Source: Bryobacteraceae bacterium (lineage in GTDB: Bacteria; Acidobacteriota; Terriglobia; Bryobacterales; Bryobacteraceae). From it: 64,000 nt of DNA. Shown piece by piece: positions 6,433 to 25,371 of the stretch. Numbering within the stretch: position 1 is the first letter of the stretch; the number at the start of each line of letters is the position of its first letter. The notes under the pieces were generated by a model. That model worked only from the letters and a program-made list of their open reading frames with translations. It did not search any database and was not told the DNA's origin. The stretch is taken from NCBI GenBank assembly GCA_035631295.1, contig DASQJB010000200.1, positions 2,227 to 66,226 on the forward strand. Direction: 5' to 3'. A program made the position numbers and the translations under genes.

Positions 6433-6682
6433 TCGTATCCTCCCCAAATCCCCAAGTGTAGGGGGCAAAAGGGAGATTGCGCAAGTGCACGGGCAGGCGC
6501 TCCGCGGTGGAATGACCGCGAGCTGGAATCTATTCGAATGGAGAGCCGTCTATCTCTCCGGTTCGCGGGCGCTTGGAACTTCAGCAGTTGATCAAACGCG
6601 ACAAGGCTTGCCGATTCACCCCTTTAGGGCGTCCACTTGGACTGGCTATGAGGTTGCAGAGTGCCAGCAAGGAGGAAATCAT

Positions 6683-7877: not shown

Positions 7878-7890
7878 ACTCTATAGGCAG

Positions 7891-8439
7891 GTGGAACAAG
7901 CGGAAGCTGTCGCTCGGGCTCGGCAGACAATCGGGATAGACGCACGCGCGACCGCGCGGGCCTATCGCGTGCGGCGCCTGGACAGGAGCGGGGAGTTTTA
8001 CTACCTGGTGGTTTTCGGCGGGCCAGGGCTGACGATCGCCGTTGCGGCTGTGAACGGCGCAAGCGGCGACATCGAGAGCTGGGCAAGAAGCTCTGGCGCA
8101 CGCGAGCACCTGGAAGTGGACGAGGCGCAAGCTCGGCGGCTATGCCGCGCGACGGCATCCGCCAGCGCGGAATTAGTTTGGAGGCCTGGTCGAGTTTCGC
8201 GCTCCCCGCTGTATCCAGTCTGGGAAGTGCGCGCCGGGCGCGAGGTGTGTTACATCGATCAACAATCAAGAAATACTCCGCCATCGACCCGTAGGCGCGC
8301 GGAGGCTCTGGATACGCTCACGAGCGCCGAAGCTTCCGGATCATTTCTGAGCCGCCCGTGCCAGCCAAAACATTCGAGATCAACACAAGAGAGCGCCCGG
8401 CTCCGGTGTCGTCGAATGCAACGTCGAAGAAAGGATTAA
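7891..8439 (+). CDS. Hypothetical protein paralogous to the C-terminal (PepSY-like) half of the upstream peptidase gene; 3' end uncertain
   Basis: GTG 7891 lies 14 nt after the upstream stop. RRLDRSGEFYYLVVFG matches QRLDRKDSFYYIVPLG upstream, and LVWRPGRVSRSPLYPVW matches LVWKPCLESLSPFFPFY. The last ~50 aa are Arg-rich junk-like. An alternative frame would terminate at TAG 8292-8294 (..KKYSAIDP*). Confidence 0.45.
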   Translation: MEQAEAVARARQTIGIDARATARAYRVRRLDRSGEFYYLVVFGGPGLTIAVAAVNGASGDIESWARSSGAREHLEVDEAQARRLCRATASASAELVWRPGRVSRSPLYPVWEVRAGREVCYIDQQSRNTPPSTRRRAEALDTLTSAEASGSFLSRPCQPKHSRSTQESARLRCRRMQRRRKD

Positions 8440-8840
8440 AACTCAAGTTCCATTCGCCGTCCGGGGAAGCCGCCGTCGACCTCCCGGACCAGACTCTCCC
8501 GTCATGCTCGGATTTGCACGGATCTGCCGTGCGCATCGCTCAACGAGCGGCGCTACCTTCGTTACAAGAACACCATGGGCTTCGCGGTTTGGATCGATCA
8601 AGCGAGCGGAGTGGTGTGGGCACAAGGCACGCACGAATACCGGCCCATGGGCGCGGCCGTGATCGCTGTCACGGATCAATTCCGGACCCGCGACTTCGGC
8701 CCGTCGCGCCGCTGCCCGGCCCGGCTGCGCCGCTCGTTCGCGGGGTTTTTCGGATCGCTCGAGGAAGTGAACGCAAGCCTGCGTTCGCGCCGCCGTTGGC
8801 GGCTCCGCTCGACTCCTTCTCACTTGTGGTAGGGCCAAGC

Positions 8841-9362
8841 ATGGGGCGAATGGGAGCGATTGCCGGCTCGGCCGTGTTTCTCGTCCTCGCTCCGGGCCTA
8901 GTGGCAGGTTGGATCCCTTGGTGGATCTCCGATTGGCGGCTGCAAGCTCCTTTCTTCGGCCTGCCGTTTGTCCGCGTAGGCGGCGGGATCCTCATCGCGC
9001 TTGGCGCAGTTGGCTTGTTAGATTCGTTCGCACGCTTTGCATGGCAGGGCGTCGGCACACCCGCGCCGGTCCTCCCAACGCGCAACCTGGTAGTCACCGG
9101 GCTATACCGTTATGTTCGAAATCCCATATACGTTTCGGTCGTGAGCGCCATCCTCGGCCAGGCGTTGCTTTTCGGAAATGCGATGCTGCTTGCCTACGGC
9201 GGCCTGGTCTGGCTGCTGTTTCACATTTTCGTGCTGGCTTATGAAGAACCTACCCTTCGGAACAAATTCGGCTCTGAGTATGAGGCATTCTGCGGCGAAG
9301 TCCCGAGGTGGATTCCTCGCCTTTCTCCCTGGACAGCACCACCGGAGGCCACGCGCCTATGA
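8841..9362 (+). CDS. Isoprenylcysteine carboxyl methyltransferase (ICMT)/phospholipid methyltransferase family membrane protein
   Basis: Signature GLYRYVRNPIY, several TM helices and EEPTLRNKFGSEYEAF. ATG 8841 was chosen; the 160-aa upstream extension in the ORF track is Arg/Pro-rich and was rejected. Confidence 0.8.
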   Translation: MGRMGAIAGSAVFLVLAPGLVAGWIPWWISDWRLQAPFFGLPFVRVGGGILIALGAVGLLDSFARFAWQGVGTPAPVLPTRNLVVTGLYRYVRNPIYVSVVSAILGQALLFGNAMLLAYGGLVWLLFHIFVLAYEEPTLRNKFGSEYEAFCGEVPRWIPRLSPWTAPPEATRL

Positions 9363-11809: not shown

Positions 11810-11811
11810 CG

Positions 11812-12615
11812 TCAGTTTTCGGAAGGTCGCTCGATGCGATCGATCATCAGCGCGTCCACCTGCCCCTTGGTCGCCTCCAATTGAAGCCCAAGCTGCTCCT
11901 GGACGGCTTTGAATAGATCCGGCAGATCGCTATTTTCCGGCCGAGGCACAATTCCGGCCCACAAACGGTCGTCGGGTGCAAACTCCAGGTCGAAATCGTA
12001 CCGGCCCGAAAGCCCGGTTCGATCCAGAACCGGACGATCCAGCGGCGATCGCTGTAACACTGAGGCAAATTCAGACATGGTCGCGTAGCGCGCCGGCAGC
12101 CGAGCAAAAGTGGGCGCCAGAGTAAAGACAAGCGGTGGAGGACCTTGCGGCGTGGCGTCCGGAATAACCGTGCTCTGCTTCAGCTTCGACCCTCCCTTTG
12201 CGACGCTCAACGCATAAATCGAGAGTTGCTTCGGCTCTCGATGGAAGGCAAGTTTGTACCGCTCCCTCAGGAGCTCCCGAAGCATCGTCATCTGCTCATC
12301 TAAGTTAGGCCGAATCGTCCCCGGCGTTTTTGCAAGAATGTCCCAATGCTCGGAATCGACCCACGCCGGACCGCCTGAAATCGCCTGCGGGCTCAAATCG
12401 TAAGCCGCGGCGATAAGCGTTCGAACCGCGTGGTTGTGCGCCTGGAAGCGGTCGGCGCTCTGCATTCTGATCCACCGTCCGTCCCGGGCATCGGGGTCGC
12501 TGGGCTTTACTGTCGCCACTTCGAACGCATCGAATTGACGCCGCGTCGTCTGCCCGGCGATGCCGACTGTCGAAGCAACAAGAGCGGCAAAAACGCATCG
12601 TGGAGCATGCTGCAT
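11812..12615 (-). CDS. TIGR03435 family soil-associated (Acidobacteria-type) protein
   Basis: N-terminal signal followed by FEVATVKPSDPD, and a C-terminal ...IDRIERPSEN pattern typical of this paralogous family. Confidence 0.75.
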   Translation of the reverse strand: MQHAPRCVFAALVASTVGIAGQTTRRQFDAFEVATVKPSDPDARDGRWIRMQSADRFQAHNHAVRTLIAAAYDLSPQAISGGPAWVDSEHWDILAKTPGTIRPNLDEQMTMLRELLRERYKLAFHREPKQLSIYALSVAKGGSKLKQSTVIPDATPQGPPPLVFTLAPTFARLPARYATMSEFASVLQRSPLDRPVLDRTGLSGRYDFDLEFAPDDRLWAGIVPRPENSDLPDLFKAVQEQLGLQLEATKGQVDALMIDRIERPSEN

Positions 12616-12671
12616 TCCTTTATCGTATATCCGATGTCACGAAAACGATGTAAACTGGTCTCCCAGACGCC

Positions 12672-14423
12672 ATGCAGCAACTCAAGTCCGTGGATGTCGT
12701 AATCGCCGGCGGCGGTTTTGTCGGCCTCACATTGGCCAAGGAGATTACCGCGCGCACCGGGCTCTCCGTCGTGGTTCTCGAACGCGGCCGACCTCGCAAG
12801 ACCTCCGACTACGGCGCCGATATGGATGAGCTGGACTACGCCCTCCGCTATCGCATGATGCAGAACCCCGCCGAGGAGACCGCCACGCACCGTCATTCTT
12901 CTCGCGCGAGCGCAGTCCCCATTCGCCAGTACGGCTCCTTCAATCCGGGAACGGGGGTGGGAGGCGCTGGAGAGCACTGGGGCGCCATCTCCTACCGCTT
13001 CTATCCGGAACATTTCAAGCTCGCCACGTTCTTACGCGAAAAGCACGGCAGCCGGCTGCCCGAGGGAGTAGCCGTTCAGGACTGGGGATTCGGATACGAC
13101 GAAATCGAGCCTTATTACTGGCGCGTAGAGCAAATGATGGGCGTCGGCGGCAAGGCGGGAAACTTACAGAATCGTCGGATCGATGGCGGCAATGTCTTCG
13201 AAGGTTCTCGCTCGCACGAGTATCCCAATCCACCGCACAAGATGCCATACGCGCCCATCGTGTTTGAAACGGCAGCGCGCGAGCTGGGCTACCATCCCTA
13301 TCCCATCCCCACGGCCACGCTCAGCCGCGCTTACACCAACCCCGATGGCGTCTCGCGCCCGGGCTGCGCTTATTGCGGCTTTTGCTCGCGCTACGGCTGC
13401 ATGATCGGAGCCAAGGCCCAGCCGACAAACATATTGATGCCGCTACTGCAAAAGCGGAAAAATTTCACGCTGCGCACTGGCTGCAACGTGCGGAGAATCG
13501 TCCACAAGGACGGCCGCGCGGTTGGCTTGAGTTATTTCGATGCTTCCGGCCAGGAGATTCTCCAACCGGCGGACATCGTAATTGTCGCCTCCTGGACGCT
13601 GAACAACTCGCGCCTGCTGCTGCTGTCGAAGCTAGGCGAGCCCTACGATCCGACTACGGGAAAAGGAACGGTGGGAAAAAACCTCACCCACCAGGTCAAC
13701 CAAGCGACTCGAATCTTCCTCGACAAGCCCCTCAATGCTTTTATGGGCGCCGGCGGATTGGGAATGGGCATCAGCGACTTCGATGGCAAAGAAGGCGTGG
13801 ATGCATTTCCCGGCGTGCTGCGTGGCGGCAACATCCGTCTGATGAGCACAGGCGAGGGGCAAATCGCCTCCTTCGGCGTGATTCCTCCAGGCGAGGCGAA
13901 ATCGGATTGGGGATCGGAGTGGAAGAAGGCGGCGCTAAAATGGCACGATCACGCCGCCGCGATCAGCACCGAAGCGGAACACCTCGCCTATCGCCAGAAC
14001 CACATCGACCTCGATCCTACCTACACCGATAAGTTCGGCGATCCGCTGACGCGCTTGACGCTGGACTGGACAGAGCACGAGCGCGCCCAGGGGGCGATGC
14101 TCACTCAGATTCACGCAAAAATCGCCAATGCGATGAACGCGAAATCTGGCGGCGCCAACTCGCGCCTGCTGGAGCGTTACACGGTTACTCAGTATCAGAG
14201 CACGCACATCAATGGAGGCGCGATCATGGGCGGCTCGCCTGAGTCGAGCGTCGTGAATCCGTGGCTGCAACACTGGCAAGCGCAGAACCTGTGGGTAGTA
14301 GGAGGGTCGGCTTTTCCGCAGAACGGCTCAGGCAACCCGACGCTCACCATTTTGGCGATCACATTCCGCGCCGCCGACGCGTTGATCGATCGCTACTTGA
14401 AGCATCCGGGAGGCCTCGCATGA
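12672..14423 (+). CDS. GMC family FAD-dependent oxidoreductase (gluconate 2-dehydrogenase flavoprotein-like)
   Basis: FAD fold DVVIAGGGFVGLTLA and C-terminal GMC motifs (GGAIMG, NPTLTILA). Confidence 0.85.
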   Translation: MQQLKSVDVVIAGGGFVGLTLAKEITARTGLSVVVLERGRPRKTSDYGADMDELDYALRYRMMQNPAEETATHRHSSRASAVPIRQYGSFNPGTGVGGAGEHWGAISYRFYPEHFKLATFLREKHGSRLPEGVAVQDWGFGYDEIEPYYWRVEQMMGVGGKAGNLQNRRIDGGNVFEGSRSHEYPNPPHKMPYAPIVFETAARELGYHPYPIPTATLSRAYTNPDGVSRPGCAYCGFCSRYGCMIGAKAQPTNILMPLLQKRKNFTLRTGCNVRRIVHKDGRAVGLSYFDASGQEILQPADIVIVASWTLNNSRLLLLSKLGEPYDPTTGKGTVGKNLTHQVNQATRIFLDKPLNAFMGAGGLGMGISDFDGKEGVDAFPGVLRGGNIRLMSTGEGQIASFGVIPPGEAKSDWGSEWKKAALKWHDHAAAISTEAEHLAYRQNHIDLDPTYTDKFGDPLTRLTLDWTEHERAQGAMLTQIHAKIANAMNAKSGGANSRLLERYTVTQYQSTHINGGAIMGGSPESSVVNPWLQHWQAQNLWVVGGSAFPQNGSGNPTLTILAITFRAADALIDRYLKHPGGLA

Positions 14424-15082
14424 AACGGCGCGAATTCATCACCCTGCCCGCGAAGAGCTTGGGCGGCGTCCTGCTGTATACGCTCGCCGGCGAACCGATC
14501 CGAGTGCACGCCCAAACCGGCGCTGCCCGCATCCCTTTGCGATTCTTCACCGCGGCCGAGGCGCGCATCGTCGAAACCGCCTGCGACCGCATTTTCCCCA
14601 GCGACGAAAGCGGCCCCGGCGCCAAGGAGGCCGGCGTGGTGGTCTTCATCGATCGCCAGCTCGCAGGGCCTTACGGCAAAGACAAATACCGCTATACCAA
14701 GCCGCCCTTTGTCGATTCCGTGCCCGAACACGGATACCAGGGAAAGGCGACTCCGCGAGACATCTATCGTGAAGGAATCCAGAACCTCGGGAACTTCGCC
14801 GAGCTTTCCCCAGCCGAACGCGATCAGCGGCTGCGCTCCATCGAGAATACGCAGTTCTTCCGGCTGCTCCGCCAGCACACCATTGAAGGAATGTTCAGCG
14901 ATCCGATGCACGGCGGCAATGCCGGGCTGATTGGCTGGCAGCTCATCGGATATCCGGGCCCGCTGATGAGCTATCGCGACGAAATCGATAAATTCCACGG
15001 CATTCCGTTCCGGCGTAAGCCCGCGGGTCTGGCGCAGCTAGCCGGCCGGCCCGTTACGGGTTGGGAAGAAGAGAAGGATTGA
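14420..15082 (+). CDS. Gluconate 2-dehydrogenase subunit 3 family protein (Tat-signal small subunit)
   Basis: ATG 14420 overlaps the GMC stop (ATGA). MKRREFITL is Tat-like. FFTAAEARIVETACDRIFPSDE is typical of the family. Confidence 0.8.
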   Translation: MKRREFITLPAKSLGGVLLYTLAGEPIRVHAQTGAARIPLRFFTAAEARIVETACDRIFPSDESGPGAKEAGVVVFIDRQLAGPYGKDKYRYTKPPFVDSVPEHGYQGKATPRDIYREGIQNLGNFAELSPAERDQRLRSIENTQFFRLLRQHTIEGMFSDPMHGGNAGLIGWQLIGYPGPLMSYRDEIDKFHGIPFRRKPAGLAQLAGRPVTGWEEEKD

Positions 15083-15091
15083 CGCGCGACG

Positions 15092-15898
15092 TCAGCAGTC
15101 CGGAAAACTGAGCCCGAATCTGCTGCGCGACGCTAAAAGGCCGGTGGCCGCGCCAATGTCGATGTCCGCAATCAGAAGCCCTTCTTTCCCGTAAGGCTGA
15201 TAGCAGAGCACCATTCCGTCCGGCCGCACCACGGCCGAGGTGGTCGGCGACCCGGGGCTGGCGACATTCACCGTCGCGACGTAGCAGGTGTTCTCGGCGG
15301 CACGGCATAACACCGCTTTTTCGTGGAACGTGTTGCGCGGATCAGCGAAAGTCGAGGGAACGTAACCGCCCGGCTCCGCTTCGTGAAAGTGCGGGTGAAA
15401 TACGATATGCGCGCCGCGCTGCGCGGCCCATCGGACCGTTTCCGGATATCGCCAGCCCTCATGGCAGATCGCGACGCCAAACGTCACCGGGCCTGCTTGA
15501 AACATCCGCCTCCCGCATCCCAGCGAATAAACTGCCTCCTCGGAAGGATCGATCTGACCCTTGTCTTGGAAACCGGCGATCGCCCCATCCCGATTGACCA
15601 CCAACGCCGTTAAGAATAAGGCTCCATCAACCACGCGCTCCGTTCCGAGAACGACCCCAATGTCCGCTCTCCCCGCCGCCGCCGCGATCGCTCGCCACGC
15701 CCGATCCAGAAATGCTGCGTCGGGAGGCGGAATCGCCTTGCCTTTCCCGCGGTATCCCGGGACATAACCCTCCGGAAAGCACATCAAGCTGGCGCCCTCC
15801 GTCGACGCCTGAGCAATGGCTTCTTCGGCCAATGCAACGGACTCTTCCGGCGTCGACGGGAATCGCAAGTTGGCTAGCGCAATCCGAAAGCTGTCCAT
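15092..15898 (-). CDS. Carbon-nitrogen hydrolase (nitrilase superfamily) protein
   Basis: Nitrilase-superfamily signature elements: FPEGYVPGY (Glu), a Lys region, and GVAICHEGWRYPE (Cys). Confidence 0.85.
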   Translation of the reverse strand: MDSFRIALANLRFPSTPEESVALAEEAIAQASTEGASLMCFPEGYVPGYRGKGKAIPPPDAAFLDRAWRAIAAAAGRADIGVVLGTERVVDGALFLTALVVNRDGAIAGFQDKGQIDPSEEAVYSLGCGRRMFQAGPVTFGVAICHEGWRYPETVRWAAQRGAHIVFHPHFHEAEPGGYVPSTFADPRNTFHEKAVLCRAAENTCYVATVNVASPGSPTTSAVVRPDGMVLCYQPYGKEGLLIADIDIGAATGLLASRSRFGLSFPDC

Positions 15899-15900
15899 AA

Positions 15901-16770
15901 CTACTCCAGTCCCAACGCCCGCGCTGGGTTGGCCTTCGCCATTTTCTCAATGTCCGACGCTGCAATTCCTTCCTTCCGCATCGCCTCAAAGAATGCAAGC
16001 ATGCCGTCAGGATGCATAGGGCTATTGGGCTGGCCCAGGTCCGAGGAAAGAATGACATGCTCCGCGCCAACTGCCCGAATCGCGCGCGCCCATTCGGCGG
16101 CGTTCATGCGTCCGTACACGAGCTCAATGTATGCCCCGAGCCGCGCAGCCTCCCGCATCTGCTCCACGTTCATTCGCACGGGAGGCGTAAGGGCGTGCGT
16201 CACCACCCTATGCCGCACTCCCTGCCGTTGCGCCTCGCGAAGAATCATCAGGCATTCCTCGGGCGAGGAGTGCCCGGTCTCCAGCGTCAGGTTGTGGCGC
16301 GCGGCCGCCGCGATCACCTCTTTGGTAGCCGGCAGCAACTGTCCGTCCTTCGCCACGGCCACAAACGGACGGTTCTCCTTGGAGTAGCGCACCTGGTTCT
16401 CCGCGTCGTACGTCGGCATCCAAACCACGCGGCCCCATCCGCCTTTCACCATCGTCATCCGTTCCACCGCGGCCGGATTCAGTCCTCCCACCGGAAGATT
16501 CAGAACGATGCCGCCGAAGACCTCGATTCCCGGAACCTCTTTGCGCACCAGATATGCGACCGATGCCGTGGACTCCCAATGATTCTTGAGCACCAGGCCC
16601 CGCATCCCGCGGCCCTTGGCTAGCTTGGCAAGGTCGATCGCGTCGATGGACCGCGGCGAGCTGTCCGGATCGCTGTGGGCGTGGACGTCGATCACTCCAT
16701 CGAGAGTCTGTCCGCGGCCGCACACGCCCGCCAGAAGGGCCCAAGCGAGAAGTGTTCTTCGATGATTCAT
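15901..16770 (-). CDS. TIM-barrel metal-dependent hydrolase-like protein (amidohydrolase-related), secreted
   Basis: ATG 16770 gives a signal peptide, followed by IDVHAHSDPD (metal-binding His pair). The ORF-track start at 16866 was rejected. Confidence 0.6.
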   Translation of the reverse strand: MNHRRTLLAWALLAGVCGRGQTLDGVIDVHAHSDPDSSPRSIDAIDLAKLAKGRGMRGLVLKNHWESTASVAYLVRKEVPGIEVFGGIVLNLPVGGLNPAAVERMTMVKGGWGRVVWMPTYDAENQVRYSKENRPFVAVAKDGQLLPATKEVIAAAARHNLTLETGHSSPEECLMILREAQRQGVRHRVVTHALTPPVRMNVEQMREAARLGAYIELVYGRMNAAEWARAIRAVGAEHVILSSDLGQPNSPMHPDGMLAFFEAMRKEGIAASDIEKMAKANPARALGLE

Positions 16771-16838
16771 CTTTTCTCGCACGATCTTCCCTATTATGAC
16801 GATTACGACGCCGGATGGCGGTTTATGGCCGGCTTCAA

Positions 16839-16866
16839 CGCATAGAATCATACCGCATAGAATCAT
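16839..16866. repeat. Perfect 13-nt direct repeat x2 (CGCATAGAATCAT, period 15), each copy containing a -10-like TAGAAT
   Basis: Copies at 16839-16851 and 16854-16866, in the divergent intergenic region. The second copy ends 12 nt before the TIR gene ATG. Confidence 0.6.
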
Positions 16867-16877
16867 GAAGAGGAAGA

Positions 16878-17780
16878 ATGGACGCCTTCCTTAGCCACTC
16901 GTCGCAAGACATCGCAATGGCGATGAAAGCTCGCACGATCCTCAGCGAAGCGGGGCTACAGCCGTGGCTGGACCAGTCGGACCTGCCGTTTGGTTTTTTG
17001 CTGCGCGATGAGTTATTGGCCGCGATTCGAGGCAGCCGCGTCTTGGTGCTGCTCTGGTCAAAGGCGGCCTCGAAGTCTCCGTGGGTTGCCTCGGAGTTGC
17101 TCACCGCGTTTCACTTGGGTCGCTTCATTGTCCCCGTGACGCTTGACAAAACGCATCTTCCGCAATTTCTTCAGAACACGGTCTATCTCGGTCCTGGTCG
17201 GCGCGGTGAGGCGGCCCTGCAAAACTTGCCGCGCGCCATCCGCGAAGCTCCGGATGCGCCCAACAAATTTCCACCGGTTGTCGCGAATCTCACGATCGAG
17301 CAAGATCTGATGGGAGTCACCATCGCGCTCGCTCAGCGCAAGGAATTGGCGCTGATGCCAGGCGACGATGCGCGCAAGGTGCACGTAGAGGTCGACGCCA
17401 TGATCCGCGAAGCTCTGAAGAAGTGGAAGTACGACTCGTTGATTCTTGCGGAAGCAGGCTACCACGTCAAGAACGCGTATCTGCTGAAGCACTGGCAAGC
17501 TTATCAAGCCGGCCGTCCTCCTCAAGACCCCCTCCTGGCTCGCGCGGAGGCCAGATTTTTTGACACCCTGTTTGTGAACCCGGAGGATCCTTCCGCATTG
17601 AATGGACTCGGCAGCATTTTGAGCCTTCAGCGAGAGCCCTACGCCGCGGAGTTCTTCATCCTGCGCGCGCTCGAGATTACTCGTCGAATGGGCCAGCCGT
17701 ATCCGGAAGCCGAGCACGACCTAGCCTTGGTCCGGAGCTTTCTCCCGGAGCGCGCGCAAACTCGCGAAACCAGGGCGTAA
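16878..17780 (+). CDS. TIR domain protein with a C-terminal helical/TPR-like region
   Basis: N-terminal ~125 aa: DAFLSHSSQD ... WLDQSDLPFG ... AIRGSRVLVLLWSKAASKSPWVASEL (TIR beta-A strand and WxxxE Glu). The C-terminal ~170 aa are helical repeats (NPEDPSALNGLGSILSLQREPYAAEFFILRALEI). Confidence 0.8.
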   Translation: MDAFLSHSSQDIAMAMKARTILSEAGLQPWLDQSDLPFGFLLRDELLAAIRGSRVLVLLWSKAASKSPWVASELLTAFHLGRFIVPVTLDKTHLPQFLQNTVYLGPGRRGEAALQNLPRAIREAPDAPNKFPPVVANLTIEQDLMGVTIALAQRKELALMPGDDARKVHVEVDAMIREALKKWKYDSLILAEAGYHVKNAYLLKHWQAYQAGRPPQDPLLARAEARFFDTLFVNPEDPSALNGLGSILSLQREPYAAEFFILRALEITRRMGQPYPEAEHDLALVRSFLPERAQTRETRA

Positions 17781-17819
17781 ACTCTGTTCCAAACTACCAT
17801 CGCCAATAACGCCGTTCCA

Positions 17820-18086
17820 ATGTGGTATCAATTGAGAGTTATGCCATCAGAAGAAGAATTAACAGCGGAAATCGAGCGGCTTCGAAAAGAAAACGAGGCG
17901 CTGAAAAAACCAACACGCGGACAGATCTCACTAAGAGTAAGCGAAAAAGGCGCACTTTCGGTATATGGTTTGGGCAGGTTCCCCGTCACGCTCTACCGCG
18001 AGCAGTGGGAAAAGCTTCTGGGAATCGCGGATGAAATCACAAACTTTATCCGTGAAAATGACCGTGCCCTGAAGAAAAAGGAATAA
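17820..18086 (+). CDS. Small hypothetical coiled-coil protein (81-88 aa) downstream of the TIR gene
   Basis: The ORF is visibly AT-richer than its flanks. Heptad-like EEELTAEIERLRKENEALKK is followed by ISLRVSEKGALSVYGLGRFPVTLYREQWEKLL. Alternative start at ATG 17841. Confidence 0.55.
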   Translation: MWYQLRVMPSEEELTAEIERLRKENEALKKPTRGQISLRVSEKGALSVYGLGRFPVTLYREQWEKLLGIADEITNFIRENDRALKKKE

Positions 18087-18175
18087 CACTCCAGTTATCG
18101 TGTGGCGACCTCTGGCTCGGCAGCAGCTCGTCCGGGAACGTGATAGATTTGTCTCGAAGAAGGGAGAATGCCGTG

Positions 18176-19138
18176 ATGCATTTTCAAAAGAGAAGCATGT
18201 TCGGATTTGTGTCAATCCTCGCATTTGTCCGTCTTGTCCCGTCGGCTTTCGCGCAAGGACCCGCCCCTGCGCCGCTCATGGTTCACCAGTTGGCGTCCAA
18301 CGTCTACTGGGTGGAGGGGGGCGGCGGAAACAGCGGCGTTGTCGTCGGCGATAAAGGCGTCATTGTGGTCGACGCCAAGACTACGCCGGCCGGCGGAAAG
18401 GAACTGCTCGACGACATCGCGAAAATCACCCCGAAGCCGGTCACGGCCGTTATCCTCACGCACAGCGACGGCGATCACGTCAACGGACTGGCCTCGTTCC
18501 CCAAGGGCATTACGATCATTGCCCACGAGAACAACAAAAAGGAACAGGAGGCTGCCCTCTCAGCCGGTGGCCGCGGCGCTCCGCCTGCCGACCATCTTCC
18601 CACTCAGGTAGTCTCCAAGAATAAAGAGAATCTCAAGATCGATGGAGTGAAGATCGAGGCGCTCCACTGGGCGCCGGCCCATACCAGCGGCGATCTGGTG
18701 GTTTATCTGCCCGACCAAAAGATCGTCTTCACCGGAGACATCATCGCGACGACCCTTCCCGATCCGCTGATCCACTTGGAAAAGAACGGCTCGTCGGAAG
18801 GCTGGATCGCCACTACCAAAGGCATCGCCGCTCTCAATTCCGATAGGTTCGTCCCCGGGCATGGAGACGTGCAGACCAAGGCCGCCATTCAGAAGAGGCT
18901 CGCGGATGCGCAGATGAAGCGGACCAAGATCATGGAACTGATCGCGCAGGGAAAGTCGCTGGATGAGATCAAGGCCGCGGTCGATCCAGCTCCTGCTGCG
19001 GGAAAGGGTGGAGGCAAAGGACCGGCGTTTGCCAGTTTCACCGAGGTCGTGTATCGCGAGCTCACCAAGAAGAGCGCATGGAACGAGCGGCTTCCGGGTC
19101 GGACGCGGCTGGTAGCCGTTGCCGGCTTGCCGCGATAG
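18176..19138 (+). CDS. MBL-fold metallo-hydrolase, secreted
   Basis: AAGGGAGAA lies upstream of ATG 18176; signal peptide present. VILTHSDGDHVNG (HxHxDH-type variant) and PGHGD. Confidence 0.8.
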   Translation: MHFQKRSMFGFVSILAFVRLVPSAFAQGPAPAPLMVHQLASNVYWVEGGGGNSGVVVGDKGVIVVDAKTTPAGGKELLDDIAKITPKPVTAVILTHSDGDHVNGLASFPKGITIIAHENNKKEQEAALSAGGRGAPPADHLPTQVVSKNKENLKIDGVKIEALHWAPAHTSGDLVVYLPDQKIVFTGDIIATTLPDPLIHLEKNGSSEGWIATTKGIAALNSDRFVPGHGDVQTKAAIQKRLADAQMKRTKIMELIAQGKSLDEIKAAVDPAPAAGKGGGKGPAFASFTEVVYRELTKKSAWNERLPGRTRLVAVAGLPR

Positions 19139-19151
19139 ACTCTGTGCTGAT

Positions 19152-20258
19152 ATGCGCCTTGCTCTTATTCTCACCATTTCGGCCTTTGCGTCGGTTCCAT
19201 CTTCGGCCCAGACGCGTCCGTCAGCCACGCTGGACGTATACGTTATCGACGTCGAGGGCGGCAATTCGACTTTGTTCGTGTCACCTTCTCGTGAGTCGCT
19301 GCTGATAGATACCGGCAATGCCGGCGCTGCCGCGGCCCGCGACGCGGGCCGCATCGTGGAAGCCATAAATGACGCCGGTCTGCGGCAGATTGACCATCTG
19401 ATCACCACTCACTGGCACGGAGACCACTTCGGCGGCATGGCGGAGCTGGCCGCCAAAGTCCCCATTCGCGAATTCATCGATCATGGCCCCAACGTCCAGC
19501 CGGGAGAAGCGGCCGACACGTTTCTCCAAAAGACCTATCCCCAGCTTTTCGCCAATGCCAAACACACCGTGGCGAAAGCCGGTGACAGGATCGCCATGGC
19601 GGGTCTGGATATCCGTGTGGTGACTTCCGCCGGCCAAACCATCCAATCGCCGCTCCCTGGCGCCGGCAAGCCTAATCCCTATTGCGCTACATTCCAACCG
19701 GGACAGAATAACGCCGAAGACCCGCAATCCGTAGGAGTCTGGACGAGCTTCGGCAAATTTCGCACGGTGCATTTAGGGGACCTGACGAAGAACAAAGAAT
19801 TCGAGCTGATGTGTCCCAACAATCGTCTGGGCGTGGTGGATGTGCTCTTGGGCTTGCACCATGGGCAGGCGAGCTCGAATTCTCAGGTTCTGGTGCACGC
19901 TCTGCATCCCCGTGTCGCCATCATGAACGATGGCACACGGAAAGGCGGCGAGCCGGAGGTGATGAAGACCATGCATTCCTCCCCTGGCCTCGAAGATCTC
20001 TGGCAACTACATTTTTCCCTTCTAAGCGGCCAGGAGTACACTGTGCCGGGAATGTTCATCGCAAATACGGTTGACGAGGCTCCGGCCGCCATGCCCATCG
20101 CGCCCGCGGCGGCTCCGCAGCCCGGACCCGGCGCGCCAGCCGCACCGGTGCACAACGGCAAAGCGTACTGGATCAAGCTCTCCGCACAGCAGGATGGATC
20201 GTTCACCGTGACCAACGCGCGGAACGGATTCAGCAAGACCTACAAACCCGGGAGCTAG
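19152..20258 (+). CDS. MBL-fold metallo-hydrolase (ComEC C-terminal-like), secreted
   Basis: Signal peptide; LITTHWHGDHFGG; LGLHHG. Confidence 0.8.
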   Translation: MRLALILTISAFASVPSSAQTRPSATLDVYVIDVEGGNSTLFVSPSRESLLIDTGNAGAAAARDAGRIVEAINDAGLRQIDHLITTHWHGDHFGGMAELAAKVPIREFIDHGPNVQPGEAADTFLQKTYPQLFANAKHTVAKAGDRIAMAGLDIRVVTSAGQTIQSPLPGAGKPNPYCATFQPGQNNAEDPQSVGVWTSFGKFRTVHLGDLTKNKEFELMCPNNRLGVVDVLLGLHHGQASSNSQVLVHALHPRVAIMNDGTRKGGEPEVMKTMHSSPGLEDLWQLHFSLLSGQEYTVPGMFIANTVDEAPAAMPIAPAAAPQPGPGAPAAPVHNGKAYWIKLSAQQDGSFTVTNARNGFSKTYKPGS

Positions 20259-20292
20259 GGCTCGCGGGCCTCCGCGCCTCTAGCCCGTTGAC

Positions 20293-21123
20293 ATGCACTG
20301 TCTCGGGATGTATCGTCATACGGTGCGAATTTCCAGGTTGGCGTTCGTGCTGTGTGTCGCCCCCTTGGCCTCAGCCGCGGGGCAACCCCAAACCTTGAAC
20401 GTCTGCGCCGATCCCGACTACTTGCCCTATTCCAACCGCGCGGGTGAAGGCTTTGAAAACAAAGTCGCGGAAGTGGTGGCGAAGGCTATGGGAGAAACCG
20501 TCGCCTACAAATGGGCCAGCTACCGCGGCCATGGCGGATTTCCGCAATTTCTATCCTCCACACTCGACGCCAAGAGATGCGACGTCGTCATGAACATTCC
20601 GTACGGCAGCCGCGAAGAGCTGACCACCAAGCCTTACTACATTTCCTCCTACGTTTTCGTTTTTCCAAAGAGCAAAGGCTACTCGATTTCCAGCATTGAT
20701 TCGCCGGCGCTGAAGAAACTGAGGATCGGATTCGAGCACGAGACTCCCGCCGAGGAGGCCGTAAAATTGCGTGGCATGATCCCCCAGGCGCGTGGATTCG
20801 ATGTCGCCGGGGACCCAGAGCAATCGCCCGAGGTCATGCTGAAAGCCTTGGCCAGCGGCAAGATCGACGTCCTGATCACGTGGCAGCCTTCTATTGGAGC
20901 CTTCCTGCGCCATTATCCGGGCCTCGAGACCGTTCCCGTTCCAAATACGCGCACGCTCGGCAGCCCGGAGCAGTTCTCATTTCCTATGTCGATGGGCGTG
21001 CGCATGGGCGACCAGGCGTTAAAGGCTAAGCTCGATGGCGTCATCGAAAAGCACGCAACCGAAATCGAAGCGGCGCTGATCCGCGCCGGCGTAAAATCGT
21101 CCGCGGCTCAGGAAAGGCAATAG
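20293..21123 (+). CDS. xoxJ: Quinoprotein dehydrogenase-associated periplasmic substrate-binding protein (MoxJ/XoxJ-like)
   Basis: LNVCADPDYLPYSNRAGEGFENKVAEVVAKAMG is typical of the MoxJ/TIGR03871-type family. Sits in the same operon as a cytochrome c and xoxF. Confidence 0.7.
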   Translation: MHCLGMYRHTVRISRLAFVLCVAPLASAAGQPQTLNVCADPDYLPYSNRAGEGFENKVAEVVAKAMGETVAYKWASYRGHGGFPQFLSSTLDAKRCDVVMNIPYGSREELTTKPYYISSYVFVFPKSKGYSISSIDSPALKKLRIGFEHETPAEEAVKLRGMIPQARGFDVAGDPEQSPEVMLKALASGKIDVLITWQPSIGAFLRHYPGLETVPVPNTRTLGSPEQFSFPMSMGVRMGDQALKAKLDGVIEKHATEIEAALIRAGVKSSAAQERQ

Positions 21124-21581
21124 TGAGAGTCCTTATTTTGATCGTGGCGATAGCGGTAGAGCTCGGGGCGCAGCAGACAGATTCCGCCCAGAAGCAGACC
21201 AAACCCGGCAAAACCTACACTTACAAACTCAAGAACGGCTCCACGCGCCAACTGGATTTTCCCGTCTATGTCGAAGGCAGCGCCCCCAAAGTCACGAAGG
21301 AAGTCTTCAAAGGCTACGCGCTCTATAACTCGTATTGCTACCGCTGCCATGGCACGGACGCGACCGGCGGCGAGCTTGCGCCGGATTTGCGGGCGTCGCT
21401 GAATACGGGAGTGAAACAACAGACTTTTATCGCCACCGCCATGGCGGGTAAGAAAGATAAGGGCATGCCGAGCTGGTCAGGCTTTCTGAGCGACGACGAC
21501 ATGATCAAGATCTACCGGTACGTGAAGGCCCGGAGCCTCGAGTTGGTCCAGGCCGGCCGGCCCCCATCGGAGCAGGACTAG
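21123..21581 (+). CDS. xoxG: c-type cytochrome, methanol-metabolism-related (XoxG/cytochrome cL-like)
   Basis: The GTG start overlaps the xoxJ stop. Signal peptide, single haem motif CYRCH, and a GMPSW ... YVKARS tail. Confidence 0.7.
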   Translation: MRVLILIVAIAVELGAQQTDSAQKQTKPGKTYTYKLKNGSTRQLDFPVYVEGSAPKVTKEVFKGYALYNSYCYRCHGTDATGGELAPDLRASLNTGVKQQTFIATAMAGKKDKGMPSWSGFLSDDDMIKIYRYVKARSLELVQAGRPPSEQD

Positions 21582-21601
21582 AAGGAGTCAGGAGCCAGAA
21601 T

Positions 21602-23365
21602 ATGCCTCGTTGCACTTTACCTCTATATGGTTTGATAGTCGTCCTTGCGGGATGCGGAGCATCCTCCAGCGCCCCGGAGGTGAGCGATTGGACGATCCCC
21701 CTGGGAAGCTACAGCGCGATCCGCCACAGCCCTTTGAAGCAGATCGATAAGTCCAATGCCGGCAAGATGAGAATGGCCTGGTCCATGTCCACCGGCACTC
21801 TGCGCGGGCAAGAGGGGCAGCCGTTGGTGGTGGGGGACATGATGTACTTCGAGAGCTCCTACCCGAACTATGTGTATGCAGTCAACCTCGACGACGTCGG
21901 CAAGATCGTCTGGAAGTTTGCGCCGGAACAAGATAAATTCGCGCCATCGGTGGCTTGCTGCGACGTGGTCAACCGCGGCGTCGCCTATGACAACGGAAAG
22001 ATTTTCGCCGGCGCGCTGGATACCAAGCTGTACGCGCTCGACGCCAAGACCGGCAAAGTGCTCTGGACCGCGACCAACGGCGATCCGCAGCTCGGCCAAA
22101 CCATGACCAACGCGCCTCTCGTCGTTCACGACAAAGTGATTGTCGGAATTGCGGGCGGAGAATATGGCGTCCGCGGCTATGTCACCGCGTACGACGTCAA
22201 CAGCGGCAAGCAGGTGTGGCGCGCATATAACGTCGGCCCGGACTCGGACATCCTCTCCGATCCGCAAAAGACTGTCGACGGCGCCACACAACAGCCTGTG
22301 GGAGAAAGTTCCAGCCTCAAGACTTGGCGCGGCGACGAGTGGAAGCTGGGAGGCGGCACAACCTGGGGCTGGTACACCTACGATCCGCAACTCAATCTGA
22401 TTTTCTACGGCAGTGGCAATCCGGGAACTTGGAATCCCACGCAGCGGCCGGGCGACAACAAATGGTCGACCACCATCTTCGCCCGCAATCCCGATACGGG
22501 CGTCGCGGCCTGGGCCTATCAGATGACTCCGCATGACGAATGGGATTACGACGGCATCAACGAGGGCGTGCTGACCGACAGCGCCATCGATGGCCAAACC
22601 GTGCCGACGATCACCCACTTCGATCGCAACGGCTTCGCCTACGTGCTCGATCGCCGTAATGGCAAGCTTCTGCGAGCCAACAAATTCGATCCCTCCACCA
22701 ACTGGGCGAAGGAAATCGACATGAAGACGGGCCGGCCTGTGCTCAACCCGGAAAAAGAAACGCACGAAGACGTGAACGTCAAAGAGATTTGCCCCGCGGC
22801 GCAGGGCGCGAAGAATCACCAGCCCGCTTCTTACGATCCCCGCACCAAACTCTTCTACGTGGGAACGAATCACATTTGCATGGATTACCAAGCGTTCGGA
22901 GTGAAATACAAGAGCGGCTTCCCCTACGTCGGGGCGATCCTGAGCATGTATCCCGCCGATCACGGCAACACCCGCGGCCGGCTCATCGCGTACGATACGA
23001 TCACGGGCCAAACCAAGTGGGCCAACGACGAGACGTTTCAAGTCTATAGCGGACCTCTCACCACCGACGGCAACGTGGTCTTCTATGGAACGCTGGATGG
23101 GTGGTTCAAAGCGGCGGATGAGGATTCCGGAAAAGAACTGTACAAGTTTCACGCGCCGTCCGGTATCATTGGCAACCCGATGACCTACTCCTACAAAGGA
23201 AAGCAGTATGTCGCCGTACTCTCGGGCGTAGGAGGTTGGGCCGCCATCGGTCTGGCGGAGGGCCTGACGAAAGGAACGGAGGGCCTCGGTGCCGTCGGTT
23301 TGACGACGTCGCTCGCCGACTACACAAACCTCGGCGGAGCGCTGCTGGTTTTTTCCTTGGAGTAA
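21602..23365 (+). CDS. xoxF: PQQ-dependent methanol/ethanol-family dehydrogenase, XoxF (lanthanide-dependent) type
   Basis: RBS GAAGGAG. Vicinal Cys pair VACCDV (21956-21961). RPGDNKW. HDEWDYDG with the extra Asp two residues after the catalytic Asp (22544-22552). ICPAAQGAKNHQPASYDP. Confidence 0.8.
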   Translation: MPRCTLPLYGLIVVLAGCGASSSAPEVSDWTIPLGSYSAIRHSPLKQIDKSNAGKMRMAWSMSTGTLRGQEGQPLVVGDMMYFESSYPNYVYAVNLDDVGKIVWKFAPEQDKFAPSVACCDVVNRGVAYDNGKIFAGALDTKLYALDAKTGKVLWTATNGDPQLGQTMTNAPLVVHDKVIVGIAGGEYGVRGYVTAYDVNSGKQVWRAYNVGPDSDILSDPQKTVDGATQQPVGESSSLKTWRGDEWKLGGGTTWGWYTYDPQLNLIFYGSGNPGTWNPTQRPGDNKWSTTIFARNPDTGVAAWAYQMTPHDEWDYDGINEGVLTDSAIDGQTVPTITHFDRNGFAYVLDRRNGKLLRANKFDPSTNWAKEIDMKTGRPVLNPEKETHEDVNVKEICPAAQGAKNHQPASYDPRTKLFYVGTNHICMDYQAFGVKYKSGFPYVGAILSMYPADHGNTRGRLIAYDTITGQTKWANDETFQVYSGPLTTDGNVVFYGTLDGWFKAADEDSGKELYKFHAPSGIIGNPMTYSYKGKQYVAVLSGVGGWAAIGLAEGLTKGTEGLGAVGLTTSLADYTNLGGALLVFSLE

Positions 23366-23368
23366 CGT

Positions 23369-24688
23369 ATGAAATACTTCGTAACCGCGCTCGTCTTCGC
23401 CGCCGGAATCGCCGCGGCCGCCGACGTTAACAACGGCGCCGCCCCGAAAACGAAGAAATTTATGACCAAGCCGCTGGTCATCGAAGACCAGGGCAGTTTT
23501 TTTATCGGAGGCGTGCCCAAGGTCACCAACTACGCCTCCGCTCCCACACCCAACAATCCCAACGCTACGCCCATACCGAATCAGATCACCATCGGCCAGA
23601 TGTATGTTCAGTTCGAAATCCCGCTAAACAAGAAACGCGGGATGCCTCCGGTGATCATGGTGCATGGATCGACGCACACCGCAGCCTGCCTCGAATCGAC
23701 ACCGGATGGCCGCGAGGGCTGGTATCCGTATTTCGTGCGCCATGGAATCTCGACATATCTGGTCGATCAAGCTGGCCGCGGCCGCTCGGGCTTCGACGAA
23801 TCCGTGATTCACGAAGCCGCCGCGATGATTCGCTCGGGCGACGTCCAGAGCGGCCTCAAATTGCTGCCGGGGTTCCAGCGAATTTCCGACAACGGCGCAT
23901 GGACTGCATGGTTCGGTCACCTCGACCCACCCGGATCGAACATCCTCACAGGCAAGCTCATTCGCCACGGCGATCCCAATGACCCGCCGAGCGACAAGGC
24001 CATCCACGGCAACGACTACTTCCCTGCATATCCTATTGATTCCGCCGATCCCGCGATTACCGCCCGCACGGGCGCCATCGGCAGCGCGCCCGCTGGGCCA
24101 AGCGATTACTACGCGCTCAACTACTACAAGGAACTTGTGCCCAACGCAGAGTCCACGCTGCCCGGCTCGACCTGTTCTACATGCGATCCCAAAGAGCTTG
24201 CGCCTGCGAATACCTGGACTCCGATGGATCTCGCGCTGCTGGTCGAAAAGCTCGGCGGCGCGGTGGTCGCTACGCATTCGCAGTCCGGCGCCATGGGCCA
24301 CCATATGGCGCGCATCTTGAAGGAACGCGGCCATCTGGATCTGCTGAAAGGTCTGATCACCATCGAGGGATCGTGCTCACTACCCAATAGCGGCCTGAAG
24401 CCCGAAGACTTCGACGGCATCCCGTATCTCGCGCTTAAAGGCGACTACACCGCGACGAGCGAAGTCTGCCAGACGACGGTGAACCAGATCAATGCCCGCC
24501 GCACCGCCGGCCACGGAACCGCTAAAGCCGATTACCTCAAGCTGGACGAAGTCGGTAATCCCGTGTTTAAGGGCACGACCCACATGATGATGGACGGCAG
24601 CAACAATCTCGAAGTCGCCGATGTAATCCTGAACTGGGCCGACGAAAACATCCTGGGGAAGAAGGGTTCCAGCAAGCAGAAGAAGTAA
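23369..24688 (+). CDS. Secreted alpha/beta-fold hydrolase
   Basis: Starts 3 nt after the xoxF stop. Signal peptide; PPVIMVHGS; nucleophile elbow-like THSQSGA. Confidence 0.6.
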   Translation: MKYFVTALVFAAGIAAAADVNNGAAPKTKKFMTKPLVIEDQGSFFIGGVPKVTNYASAPTPNNPNATPIPNQITIGQMYVQFEIPLNKKRGMPPVIMVHGSTHTAACLESTPDGREGWYPYFVRHGISTYLVDQAGRGRSGFDESVIHEAAAMIRSGDVQSGLKLLPGFQRISDNGAWTAWFGHLDPPGSNILTGKLIRHGDPNDPPSDKAIHGNDYFPAYPIDSADPAITARTGAIGSAPAGPSDYYALNYYKELVPNAESTLPGSTCSTCDPKELAPANTWTPMDLALLVEKLGGAVVATHSQSGAMGHHMARILKERGHLDLLKGLITIEGSCSLPNSGLKPEDFDGIPYLALKGDYTATSEVCQTTVNQINARRTAGHGTAKADYLKLDEVGNPVFKGTTHMMMDGSNNLEVADVILNWADENILGKKGSSKQKK

Positions 24689-24764
24689 AGGCCGGACAGC
24701 CCGTTTCTCGCCCAACATCGTGCTGGGCTGTGCGGGGAAGCTGGATAATGAACTAGGATTCTTC

Positions 24765-24992
24765 ATGATTGACTGGACGATGTGCCCGGCAGTCGAGCGC
24801 CATTCCGGCAAACTCGGTGGCGCCTGGGTCTTTCGCGGAACTCGCGTACCCGTTTCAGCCTTGTTTTCGAACCTGGAGGGCGGGGCGACGCTCGAAGAGT
24901 TCCTCGAGTGGTTCCCAGGCGTGTCGCGCGAGCAGGTGAATGAAGTGCTCCAACACGCTTCGCGCAGCCTGGACGACCCGATTCCCGCCTGA
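24765..24992 (+). CDS. DUF433 (COG2442) antitoxin-like protein
   Basis: GKLGGAWVFRGTRVPVSALFSNLEGGATLEEFLEWFPGVSREQV is the characteristic DUF433 core. The ORF-track start 24720 (GTG) is a possible alternative. Confidence 0.75.
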   Translation: MIDWTMCPAVERHSGKLGGAWVFRGTRVPVSALFSNLEGGATLEEFLEWFPGVSREQVNEVLQHASRSLDDPIPA

Positions 24993-25003
24993 CCCGCGCT
25001 TGG

Positions 25004-25371
25004 ATGCGAATCCTGCTCGATCACAACACCCGGGCTCCGCTGCGCTGCTGGCTCATCGGGCATAGCGTAGAAACTGCCTGCGAGCGCGGTTGGGTCGGAG
25101 TTTACCAACGGAGATCTCCTTCGAATCGCCGAGGAAGAAGGGGTTCGATGTAATGATCACGACTGACAAGAGTATTCGGCATCAGCAGAATCTTGCCGGA
25201 TGCACTCTTGCGTTGCTGGTCATCAACACGAACGACTGGACGCAAATTCGGCACTGGAAATCGGTTATATTAGACGCCGTCTCGCGAGCTGAGCCTGGAC
25301 AGGTTATTGAAGCGGCGATTCCGCTTAGGAATAGGGCGCAACGCCGCGCTAGCTTTGGAGAGGAGCTATGA
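25004..25371 (+). pseudogene. DUF5615 (COG4634, PIN-like/Mut7-C) toxin-like gene with two +1 frameshifts
   Basis: Three frames are needed. MRILLDHNTRAPLRCWLIGHSVETACERGW, then (S)EFTNGDLLRIAEEEG, then FDVMITTDKSIRHQQNLAGCTLALLVI... The junctions sit at G-runs 25092-25094 and 25140-25143. Confidence 0.7.

Follow-up and report, generated by a model that had tools for sequence, protein, structure and literature searches.

A TIR-TPR gene and its small neighbour in a Bryobacteraceae contig are probably two independent genes

The window analysed here is a stretch of 64,000 nucleotides from a Bryobacteraceae bacterium (phylum Acidobacteriota; assembly GCA_035631295.1, contig DASQJB010000200.1, positions 2,227 to 66,226 of the forward strand), in which a gene encoding a TIR-domain protein is followed on the same strand by a small open reading frame (ORF). 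A sequence-only reading of this region had proposed that the pair forms an uncharacterised two-gene defence or signalling module acting on nicotinamide adenine dinucleotide (NAD+). Our analysis indicates that these are most probably two independent genes standing side by side: a stand-alone sensor-NADase in which a TIR domain is fused to tetratricopeptide-like repeats (TPR), and an unrelated small core gene. On comparative sequence evidence the small gene is a separate gene and not a partner of the TIR gene, and the locus does not represent a new two-gene TIR system. The features on which the argument rests are the following.

16878-17780, plus strand: TIR-TPR gene, 300 aa (ORF, Pfam TIR_2, full-length family conservation, AlphaFold2 model)
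16878-17255, plus strand: TIR domain, residues 1-126 (Foldseek, PDB profile search, Pfam)
17094-17096, plus strand: codon of the catalytic-type Glu73 (family alignment, alignment with AbTir)
17295-17735, plus strand: C-terminal all-helical TPR-like domain, residues 140-286, a putative sensor or oligomerisation domain
17425-17599, plus strand: positions where closely related strains carry frameshifted TIR alleles (contig alignments)
15125-17819, no strand: strain-variable 2.7-kb block with CN_hydrolase, DUF6282 amidohydrolase and TIR-TPR genes (blastn against the sister genome)
17821-17832, plus strand: conserved cis-element TGTGGTATCAAT upstream of the small gene (comparison of upstream regions)
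17841-18086, plus strand: small conserved gene, 81 aa, judged unrelated to the TIR gene (family conservation, AlphaFold2, synteny)

If the two genes worked together, their relatives should be found together, and adjacent co-occurrence was one of the checks that the sequence-only reading had itself named. Of the 42 loci of the TIR-TPR family that we sampled, 3 were long metagenome contigs, 36 came from GTDB species and the other three belonged to the closest relatives (79, 70 and 68% identity); all were searched with tblastn for relatives of the small protein. None was found in any of the 42, even at E<=1, and this holds for the closest TIR relatives (79-66% identical) as well. Likewise, none of 83 bacterial loci of the small gene contained a TIR-family relative. 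The small-gene family is also about ten times larger than the TIR family and extends to phages, where the TIR family was not found (IMG/VR). Because the genes do not co-occur elsewhere, and because a sister genome carries the small gene without the TIR gene, the adjacency is confined to a single strain cluster with at least 97% identity, all of whose strain-level contigs keep it. Part of our best explanation is that it arose by a local rearrangement in a single Bryobacteraceae lineage.

The sister genome (Bryobacteraceae assembly GCA_035293905.1, locus L052) encodes a small protein 93% identical to that of the window. The order of genes in its slot is GMC oxidoreductase, Gluconate_2-dh3 subunit, small gene and metallo-beta-lactamase, without the CN_hydrolase, DUF6282 and TIR genes. 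By blastn, window positions 12646-15124 and 17820-19086 correspond collinearly to positions 5442-7925 and 7980-9251 of the sister locus, and 15125-17819 is missing. The sister homology restarts at 17820, exactly 21 nt upstream of the ATG at 17841. The earlier picture of an inserted islet is therefore half right: the TIR gene does lie in a strain-variable segment, but the pair is not the unit, since the block at 15125-17819 stops before the small gene and the shared backbone resumes at 17820. Around the TIR block we saw no integrase and no meaningful direct or inverted repeats, the only tRNA gene being 12 kb away.

The 21 nt between 17820 and the ATG include TGTGGTATCAAT. The core of this element, GTG[GC]TA[TC]CA, was found in 28 out of 35 upstream regions of close small-gene homologues, ending 7-18 nt before the ATG and kept whatever the upstream gene, over a background of 0.0026 per 70 nt; the 64-kb window contains it once, at 17822. 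The small gene thus owns a cis-element, probably either an extended -10-type promoter (with a leaderless or short-leader mRNA) or an operator. The small ORF lies 39 or 60 nt downstream of the TIR ORF, depending on whether it is read from 17820 or from 17841. Because most homologues are 81 aa long and the conserved motif lies inside the supposed extension, the 88-aa reading is wrong and the start is the ATG at 17841 (81 aa); the co-oriented small ORF seen in the sequence-only reading exists, with this shorter N-terminus. In one acidobacterial clade (loci L140, L142, L147, L150-L155 and others) a second upstream block, TTCAGCGTA[AT]CA[TC]G, is located ~10-15 nt beyond the GTG[GC]TATCA element and may be a -35-like element or an operator.

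The small ORF had also been described as AT-richer than its flanks, and it is. Its GC content is 47.6%, with a GC content at third codon positions (GC3) of 0.49, compared with ~60% and ~0.72 in the flanks, and its amino-acid composition predicts 55.4%, which accounts for only part of the difference. The TIR gene is native in composition (GC3 0.70). Relatives of the small gene are lower in GC than their own locus in 38 of 43 cases, and because this is a family-wide trait, the low GC is not a sign of insertion here.

The idea of a dedicated two-gene unit for defence or signalling, in which the small coiled-coil protein would serve the TIR-TPR protein as regulator, antitoxin or effector, can point to the common orientation, the 60-nt gap and the persistence of the arrangement in all strain-level contigs of the lineage. 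No terminator-like site was seen between the genes in a promoter/terminator consensus scan, which was uninformative, and the occurrence of the small family in phages makes a role as trigger or inhibitor conceivable. All of this is outweighed by the absence of co-occurrence in the 42 and 83 loci, with even the closest TIR relatives lacking the small gene, and by the sister genome, where the equivalent slot contains the small gene and no TIR gene. In addition, an upstream element of its own goes with the small gene, which shows perfect conservation even as frameshifts accumulate in the TIR gene (see below). Comparative data largely refute the module, which we now regard as very improbable, and a false lead is thereby removed.

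What, then, is the TIR-TPR protein? The ORF at 16878-17780, which contains the motifs quoted in the earlier reading, encodes 300 aa. Pfam TIR_2 (PF13676) matches residues 4-103 with 60.5 bits over a cut-off of 28 (E=2.9e-16), the Pfam TIR and ThsB_TIR models giving weaker matches. An AlphaFold2 (AF2) model, built on 34 homologues, has a predicted local distance difference test (pLDDT) score of 87.8 and a predicted template-modelling score (pTM) of 0.86, and consists of an alpha/beta TIR domain at residues 1-~125 and helices at residues 140-286; pLDDT dips at residues 31-50, and the region of the BB loop (~residues 33-40) is flexible. When compared with the PDB by Foldseek, the TIR part retrieved Hydra TRR-2, MAL, SARM1, MyD88, AbTir and SPARTA with TM-target values of 0.66-0.81, as befits a flavodoxin-like TIR fold. 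The C-terminal part retrieved the TPR domains of CHIP/STUB1, APC subunits and designed TPRs (TM-target ~0.7), and residues 224-270 match consensus TPR repeats in a profile search of PDB sequences. Both the N-terminal TIR domain and the helical, TPR-like nature of the C-terminal ~160 aa, as first read from the sequence, are thereby confirmed.

The top match of the same profile search was the NAD+ hydrolase AbTir (E=7.7e-8). Glu73, in the motif 'WVASEL', lines up with the Glu of AbTir 'DWTNYEL' and of Roq1 'WCLEEL', the established catalytic residue of these proteins. It is invariant in all 34 family members aligned, within the W-x-x-x-E pattern of NADase-type TIRs. The NADase-type Glu that had been named earlier is thus present, and cleavage of NAD+ by this protein is predicted. 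AbTir (PDB 7uwg/7uxu) has the W-x-x-x-E motif in common with our protein and is its best PDB sequence match, whereas the non-TIR regions of the two differ. In the C-terminal domain the family conserves the motifs GYHxKNAYxLKHW, GRPPxDPLL and ALNGLGSIL. The N-terminal segment of an 824-aa 'Tetratricopeptide repeat protein' in the PDB (9m0n/9umd) matches the TIR profile with E=0.005, and may be a structurally characterised TIR-TPR defence protein.

Comparison with models of known defence systems did not assign the protein to any of them. PF08937 (ThsB_TIR) scores 19.0 bits, under its cut-off of 21.2, which places the protein outside the ThsB type by hidden Markov model (HMM). The matches in PADLOC and NCBIfam (SAVED_TIR, ThsB, retron-TIR and ThcB4) are weak, cover the TIR core only and lie far under equivalog cut-offs: the best PADLOC ThsB model reaches E 1.8e-6, the SAVED_TIR match is restricted to residues 3-80, and NCBIfam Thoeris type III ThcB4 gives 18 bits for a cut-off of 220. 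As the earlier reading had noticed, no classical TIR partner is encoded nearby. Pfam annotation revealed no ThsA, cyclase, STING, STAND or reverse transcriptase gene within ~8 kb of the TIR gene, and no Ago gene among the annotated neighbours. The protein therefore falls outside Thoeris, for which none of the adjacent effectors (ThsA SIR2/SLOG, Macro, SLATT or ThsI) is found within that distance, and outside CBASS, Pycsar and SPARTA, its C-terminus being TPR-like and not SAVED, STING, cNMP-binding or APAZ, with no cyclase or Ago gene nearby.

By analogy, the gene is best filed under the known kind of TIR fused to a TPR sensor, similar to TIR-II. E. coli TIR-II, which combines TIR and TPR in a single protein or in split form, has antiphage activity that needs the TIR active site, is reported to act via cell death or growth arrest and to be the commonest and most broadly distributed of the TIR systems surveyed; an ATPase is additionally present in ~30% of TIR-II systems, and Caudoviricetes are among the carriers of TIR-II (PMC11350192). 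The likeness, drawn by domain types only, lies in a TIR with NADase-type Glu joined to TPR in an arrangement workable as one polypeptide. In contrast to TIR-II, the present family has no relative in IMG/VR, and the protein is small (300 aa), with a compact TPR-like domain of ~150 aa. Another single-protein TIR with which it can be compared is SpbK, described as a TIR NADase encoded by one gene, which follows the logic of abortive infection and interacts with a protein of a phage (PMC12847820); its non-TIR regions differ from those of the TIR-TPR protein.

The TIR-TPR family is compact, comprising 506 clusters at 90% identity with a length of ~295 aa and an architecture kept end to end. A scan of GTDB genomes, in which an alignment served as query (the single TIR sequence retrieved nothing), found homologues in 36 species, 45-52% identical to the query. 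Their patchy distribution takes in Acidobacteriota, Nitrospirota, Binatia, Chloroflexota, Actinomycetota, Planctomycetota, Rokubacteria, Thermodesulfobacteriota and several Pseudomonadota, a pattern in keeping with one gene spreading horizontally as a unit. When the flanking ORFs were clustered all against all, the first 39 TIR loci showed no conserved neighbour, the exception being local synteny in one Acidobacteriaceae clade.

Effector-type genes adjoin the TIR gene in 4 of the 42 loci (L007, L016, L138 and L035). Two Nitrospiraceae metagenome-assembled genomes share the same layout (L007 2732-6885, and L016), in which co-oriented genes encode a TPR-S protein (664 aa; PF20308 E=1e-14), a patatin phospholipase (373 aa; PADLOC phospholipase effectors 1e-44, NCBIfam CBASS_lipase 6e-35) and the TIR-TPR protein (294 aa), in this order. 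The cluster has a Thoeris-like look with a lipase effector, and we found no named match for it. At L138 (4510-6909), whose TIR protein is 68% identical to that of the window, a co-oriented gene for a 474-aa MAP3K_TRAF_bd+TPR-S protein lies directly upstream, and at L035 a patatin gene stands beside the TIR gene in divergent orientation. In type VIII Thoeris, the TPR-bearing effector ThsI responds to canonical cyclic ADP-ribose (cADPR) (bioRxiv 10.64898/2025.12.03.692087), and the pair at L138 resembles that combination of TIR and ThsI. The patatin phospholipase of the Nitrospiraceae cluster is an addition that lies outside the type VII and VIII descriptions consulted.

These clusters raise the question of whether the TIR-TPR protein is a Thoeris-like generator of the ThsB type, which would sense infection and make a cADPR-type messenger for an unlinked effector (e.g. 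TPR-S or patatin) and would not kill by depleting NAD+ itself. Three TIR-TPR relatives adjoin TPR-S genes (one with MAP3K_TRAF_bd), as in TIR/ThsI pairs, the neighbour at L138 resembling ThsI, and ThsB-type HMMs do match, weakly. We nevertheless consider this unlikely for the protein of the window. Immune signalling pairs are normally tightly linked, while here, as in ~90% of relatives, no effector gene adjoins the TIR gene, and tblastn detected no relative of TPR-S or patatin anywhere in the 64-kb window. The ThsB_TIR score stays under its cut-off. A difference from type VIII Thoeris is that TPR repeats are fused to the TIR protein itself, in a domain with no significant relationship to TPR-S.

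Comparison of closely related strains shows that the TIR gene is recurrently broken. A T deletion at 17598/9 is found in three assemblies (L043, L046 and L050), a G deletion at 17425/6 in L043 and L050, and an A insertion at 17596 in L048, the last an independent event, which makes at least 2 independent frameshift events overall. These frameshifts are the sole indels in the alignments of L043 (12.6 kb), L046, L048 and L050 to the window. Among intact TIR copies, the within-population ratio of non-synonymous to synonymous polymorphism (pN/pS) is ~0.73 (16 non-synonymous and 7 synonymous changes), a value based on small counts and non-independent comparisons, and most neighbours have 0.1-0.33. 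The small gene has zero amino-acid changes within the strain cluster. We infer that the TIR gene is a dispensable, partly decaying orphan copy that is being lost in part of the population.

An immune-type role is suggested for the TIR-TPR protein because of the effector-type neighbours in 4 of 42 loci, the strain-variable block, the frameshifts, the pN/pS of 0.73 and the experimental validation of single-protein systems combining TIR and TPR (E. coli TIR-II) and of sensor-plus-TIR NADases (SpbK). Several observations weigh against it. Most TIR loci, that of the window included, are surrounded by genes for metabolism or housekeeping and do not lie in any recognisable defence island, and the local synteny of the Acidobacteriaceae clade is less typical of mobile defence genes. 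The family has no relative among IMG/VR viral contigs, and a search of plasmids produced partial TIR-domain matches at ~30-36% identity and nothing else. No full-length model in PADLOC or NCBIfam matches the protein, the composition of its gene is native, and the pN/pS carries the caution just given.

Most of these same observations would suit a non-immune protein, either a housekeeping or regulatory scaffold with TIR as an interaction module or an NAD-linked regulator of metabolism or stress, the metabolic or housekeeping surroundings, the stable synteny of the Acidobacteriaceae clade, the native codon usage, the absence from viral contigs and the restriction of plasmid matches to parts of the TIR domain all being in keeping with such a role. 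We rate this somewhat lower still than the Thoeris-like generator. All the TIR motifs, the NADase-type Glu among them, are invariant, the family spreads patchily across phyla at ~50% identity, and CBASS-like patatin and TPR-S genes adjoin several relatives; moreover, genes that are costly and dispensable typically show frameshift alleles and vary in presence between close genomes, as this one does.

The reading that we prefer, a stand-alone TIR-TPR sensor-NADase, suggests the following mechanism. The TPR-like domain would hold the protein in an inactive state up to the binding of a trigger, which is probably a protein of a phage or some other cue of infection. Assembly of the TIR domains and cleavage of NAD+ via Glu73 would follow, and the outcome could be depletion of NAD+ (abortive infection), a cADPR-type signal, or both. 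With no linked effector in this genome, the protein would act alone or with an unlinked effector. The family, defined here as a compact group of ~295-aa proteins over at least 9 phyla, shows TIR sensor-enzymes as orphans and occasionally with TPR-S/patatin effectors, and should be useful for tracing the assembly and decay of Thoeris-like systems.

We now turn to the small gene. A homologue search found at least 7996 significant relatives among 8000 candidates scored, most of them 81 aa long, and an exhaustive scan yielded at least 4354 clusters at 50% identity (E<=1e-3). The protein is 80-90% identical across many acidobacterial lineages. Its gene is single-copy in every sampled locus, is always annotated as hypothetical, and occupies chromosomal contexts that are stable within a clade and differ between clades, such as the order HAD hydrolase, small gene, Abhydrolase_11 in ~15 loci. 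Judged by this distribution, it is a core gene of Acidobacteriota that is also borne by phages. A plasmid of Acidisarcina polymorpha likewise carries a copy. The IMG/VR viral contigs contain 145 relatives. In ~25 of the 80 viral loci kept (L055-L134), the small gene adjoins a recurring gene set that encodes a GIY-YIG-like endonuclease, a 226-aa protein matching no family, the large terminase and a T7-type portal (PF12236), for instance at L103 5001-8124 and L120 2691-7849. In the complete 44-kb phage MW202637.1 (L135), it is found at a divergent junction adjoining the packaging operon.

The AF2 model of the small protein (pLDDT 86) has a helix at residues 4-22 followed by three short strands and two helices, with a beta-beta-beta-alpha-alpha core at residues 28-72. 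The heptad-like N-terminus and conserved core noticed in the sequence-only reading both stand. The N-terminal helix carries a heptad, L7-I11-L14-N18-L21, in which L14 and N18 are at least 90% conserved, L21 is invariant and the Asn occupies an 'a' position. An Asn at this heptad position, as in GCN4, is a signature of parallel dimeric leucine zippers; the N-terminus conforms to that pattern, and the dimer itself is predicted. The core, VSxKGxxSxYGxGRFPVTLYxEQW, is invariant in 30 closer homologues (alignment A2). Pfam returned only sub-threshold coiled-coil models (bZIP, HALZ and DivIC), and PADLOC, NCBIfam and PHROGs only coiled-coil noise; searches of Pfam, PHROGs, BFVD and the PDB, by sequence and by structure, gave no significant match to the core.

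Two unusual relatives hint at nucleic-acid binding. In one (P0268, 220 aa), an HU/IHF domain (Bac_DNA_binding, E=2.6e-25) is joined to a double copy of the core, and the other (P0252, 216 aa) has three tandem core copies behind a single N-terminal zipper-like helix. These architectures, together with the leucine zipper, bear on a further possibility, that the small protein came from a phage as an anti-defence factor, for instance one that soaks up or inhibits TIR signalling (a sponge or inhibitor), and was kept beside the TIR gene. Its presence in 145 viral contigs and next to the TIR gene in this lineage would be in line with that idea. We give it hardly any credence, as the gene is a syntenic acidobacterial core gene with no TIR gene nearby, highly similar across many lineages, and as the architectures just described point to nucleic-acid binding instead.

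Which known fold might the core resemble? An H-NS-like protein, considered for the GxGRxP motif, was ruled out (hhalign probability 0.2%, no match to Pfam Histone_HNS). A Foldseek search of the PDB gave its highest query-normalised TM (0.41-0.42) with the DNA-bound PC4 orthologue MoSub1, yet with E=3.4. When aligned with the PC4 family by hhalign, the small protein scored 22.8 (E=2.4e-4, probability 43%) over only 26 columns, and column-shuffled controls scored 10.2 +/- 2.3, with 0 of 150 shuffles reaching 22.8. The aligned segment is GRFPVTLYxEQWxxLL...I..FI. Like PC4/Sub1 (PF02229) and the PC4-like ssDNA-binding proteins of bacteria and phages, tentatively its nearest known counterparts, the small protein is a small domain of beta-sheet plus helix, and the motif GR-x-x-[IV][ST]L-x-x-EQW-x-x-L and the next helix align. 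It differs in having three strands, where PC4 has four, and in its N-terminal leucine zipper, which is not a feature of PC4.

The small gene product would most likely be a nucleic-acid-binding protein that dimerises via its leucine zipper and whose gene has its own promoter-like element. We judge the chances about even that it is, more precisely, a dimeric small nucleic-acid-binding protein, either nucleoid-associated or regulatory, with the element upstream of its own gene as a possible target. Telling against this are the nature of the basis for nucleic-acid binding (one fusion, genomic context and a 26-column motif, without a significant structural match) and the result that HMMER finds no match to PC4 (PF02229) in the protein. 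We found no literature on an acidobacterial nucleoid protein of this type. To our knowledge, the chromatin and regulatory proteins of Acidobacteria are poorly known, and this abundant family without a Pfam model, common to soil Acidobacteria and phages, is uncovered here as a candidate new DNA/RNA-binding protein.

A more ambitious joint reading, which we put forward tentatively and at less than an even chance, is that the small proteins form a new large family of leucine-zipper dimers with a miniature PC4-like core, serving as nucleoid-associated or transcription factors with possible autoregulation via GTGGTATCAC, and that the TIR-TPR family is possibly the signal generator of an undescribed Thoeris-like type with TPR-S/patatin effectors, the copy in the window being an orphan. 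These by-products, the small-protein family and the Nitrospiraceae TPR-S/patatin/TIR-TPR cluster, are more interesting than the module originally claimed.

Finally, we describe the surroundings of the two genes. Pfam annotates their neighbours in the window as an esterase, amidohydrolases, a GMC oxidoreductase, CN_hydrolase, DUF6282, metallo-beta-lactamases and a pyrroloquinoline quinone (PQQ) dehydrogenase cluster. A second block without counterpart in the sister genome spans 19087-25362 and contains a second exported metallo-beta-lactamase and an SBP_bac_3/cytochrome c/PQQ-dehydrogenase trio with a layout like xoxJ-xoxG-xoxF, as well as a DUF433 gene and a 439-aa protein with no Pfam match and a high within-population pN/pS (0.94). 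The metallo-beta-lactamase-fold protein at 19119-20258 has a weak precomputed match to Pfam Anti-Pycsar_Apyc1 (PF23023); a role in cytosolic nucleotide signalling is unlikely, because its hydrophobic N-terminus suggests export. At 24720-25371, the DUF433 gene (E=1.5e-14) precedes a 93-aa ORF without Pfam match, in a layout like that of DUF433-type toxin-antitoxin pairs. On the minus strand, at 11810-12645, lies a DUF3738 gene (TIGR03435-like, soil-associated). The sister genome lacks this gene too, and the region therefore forms a mosaic with at least 3 indel blocks.

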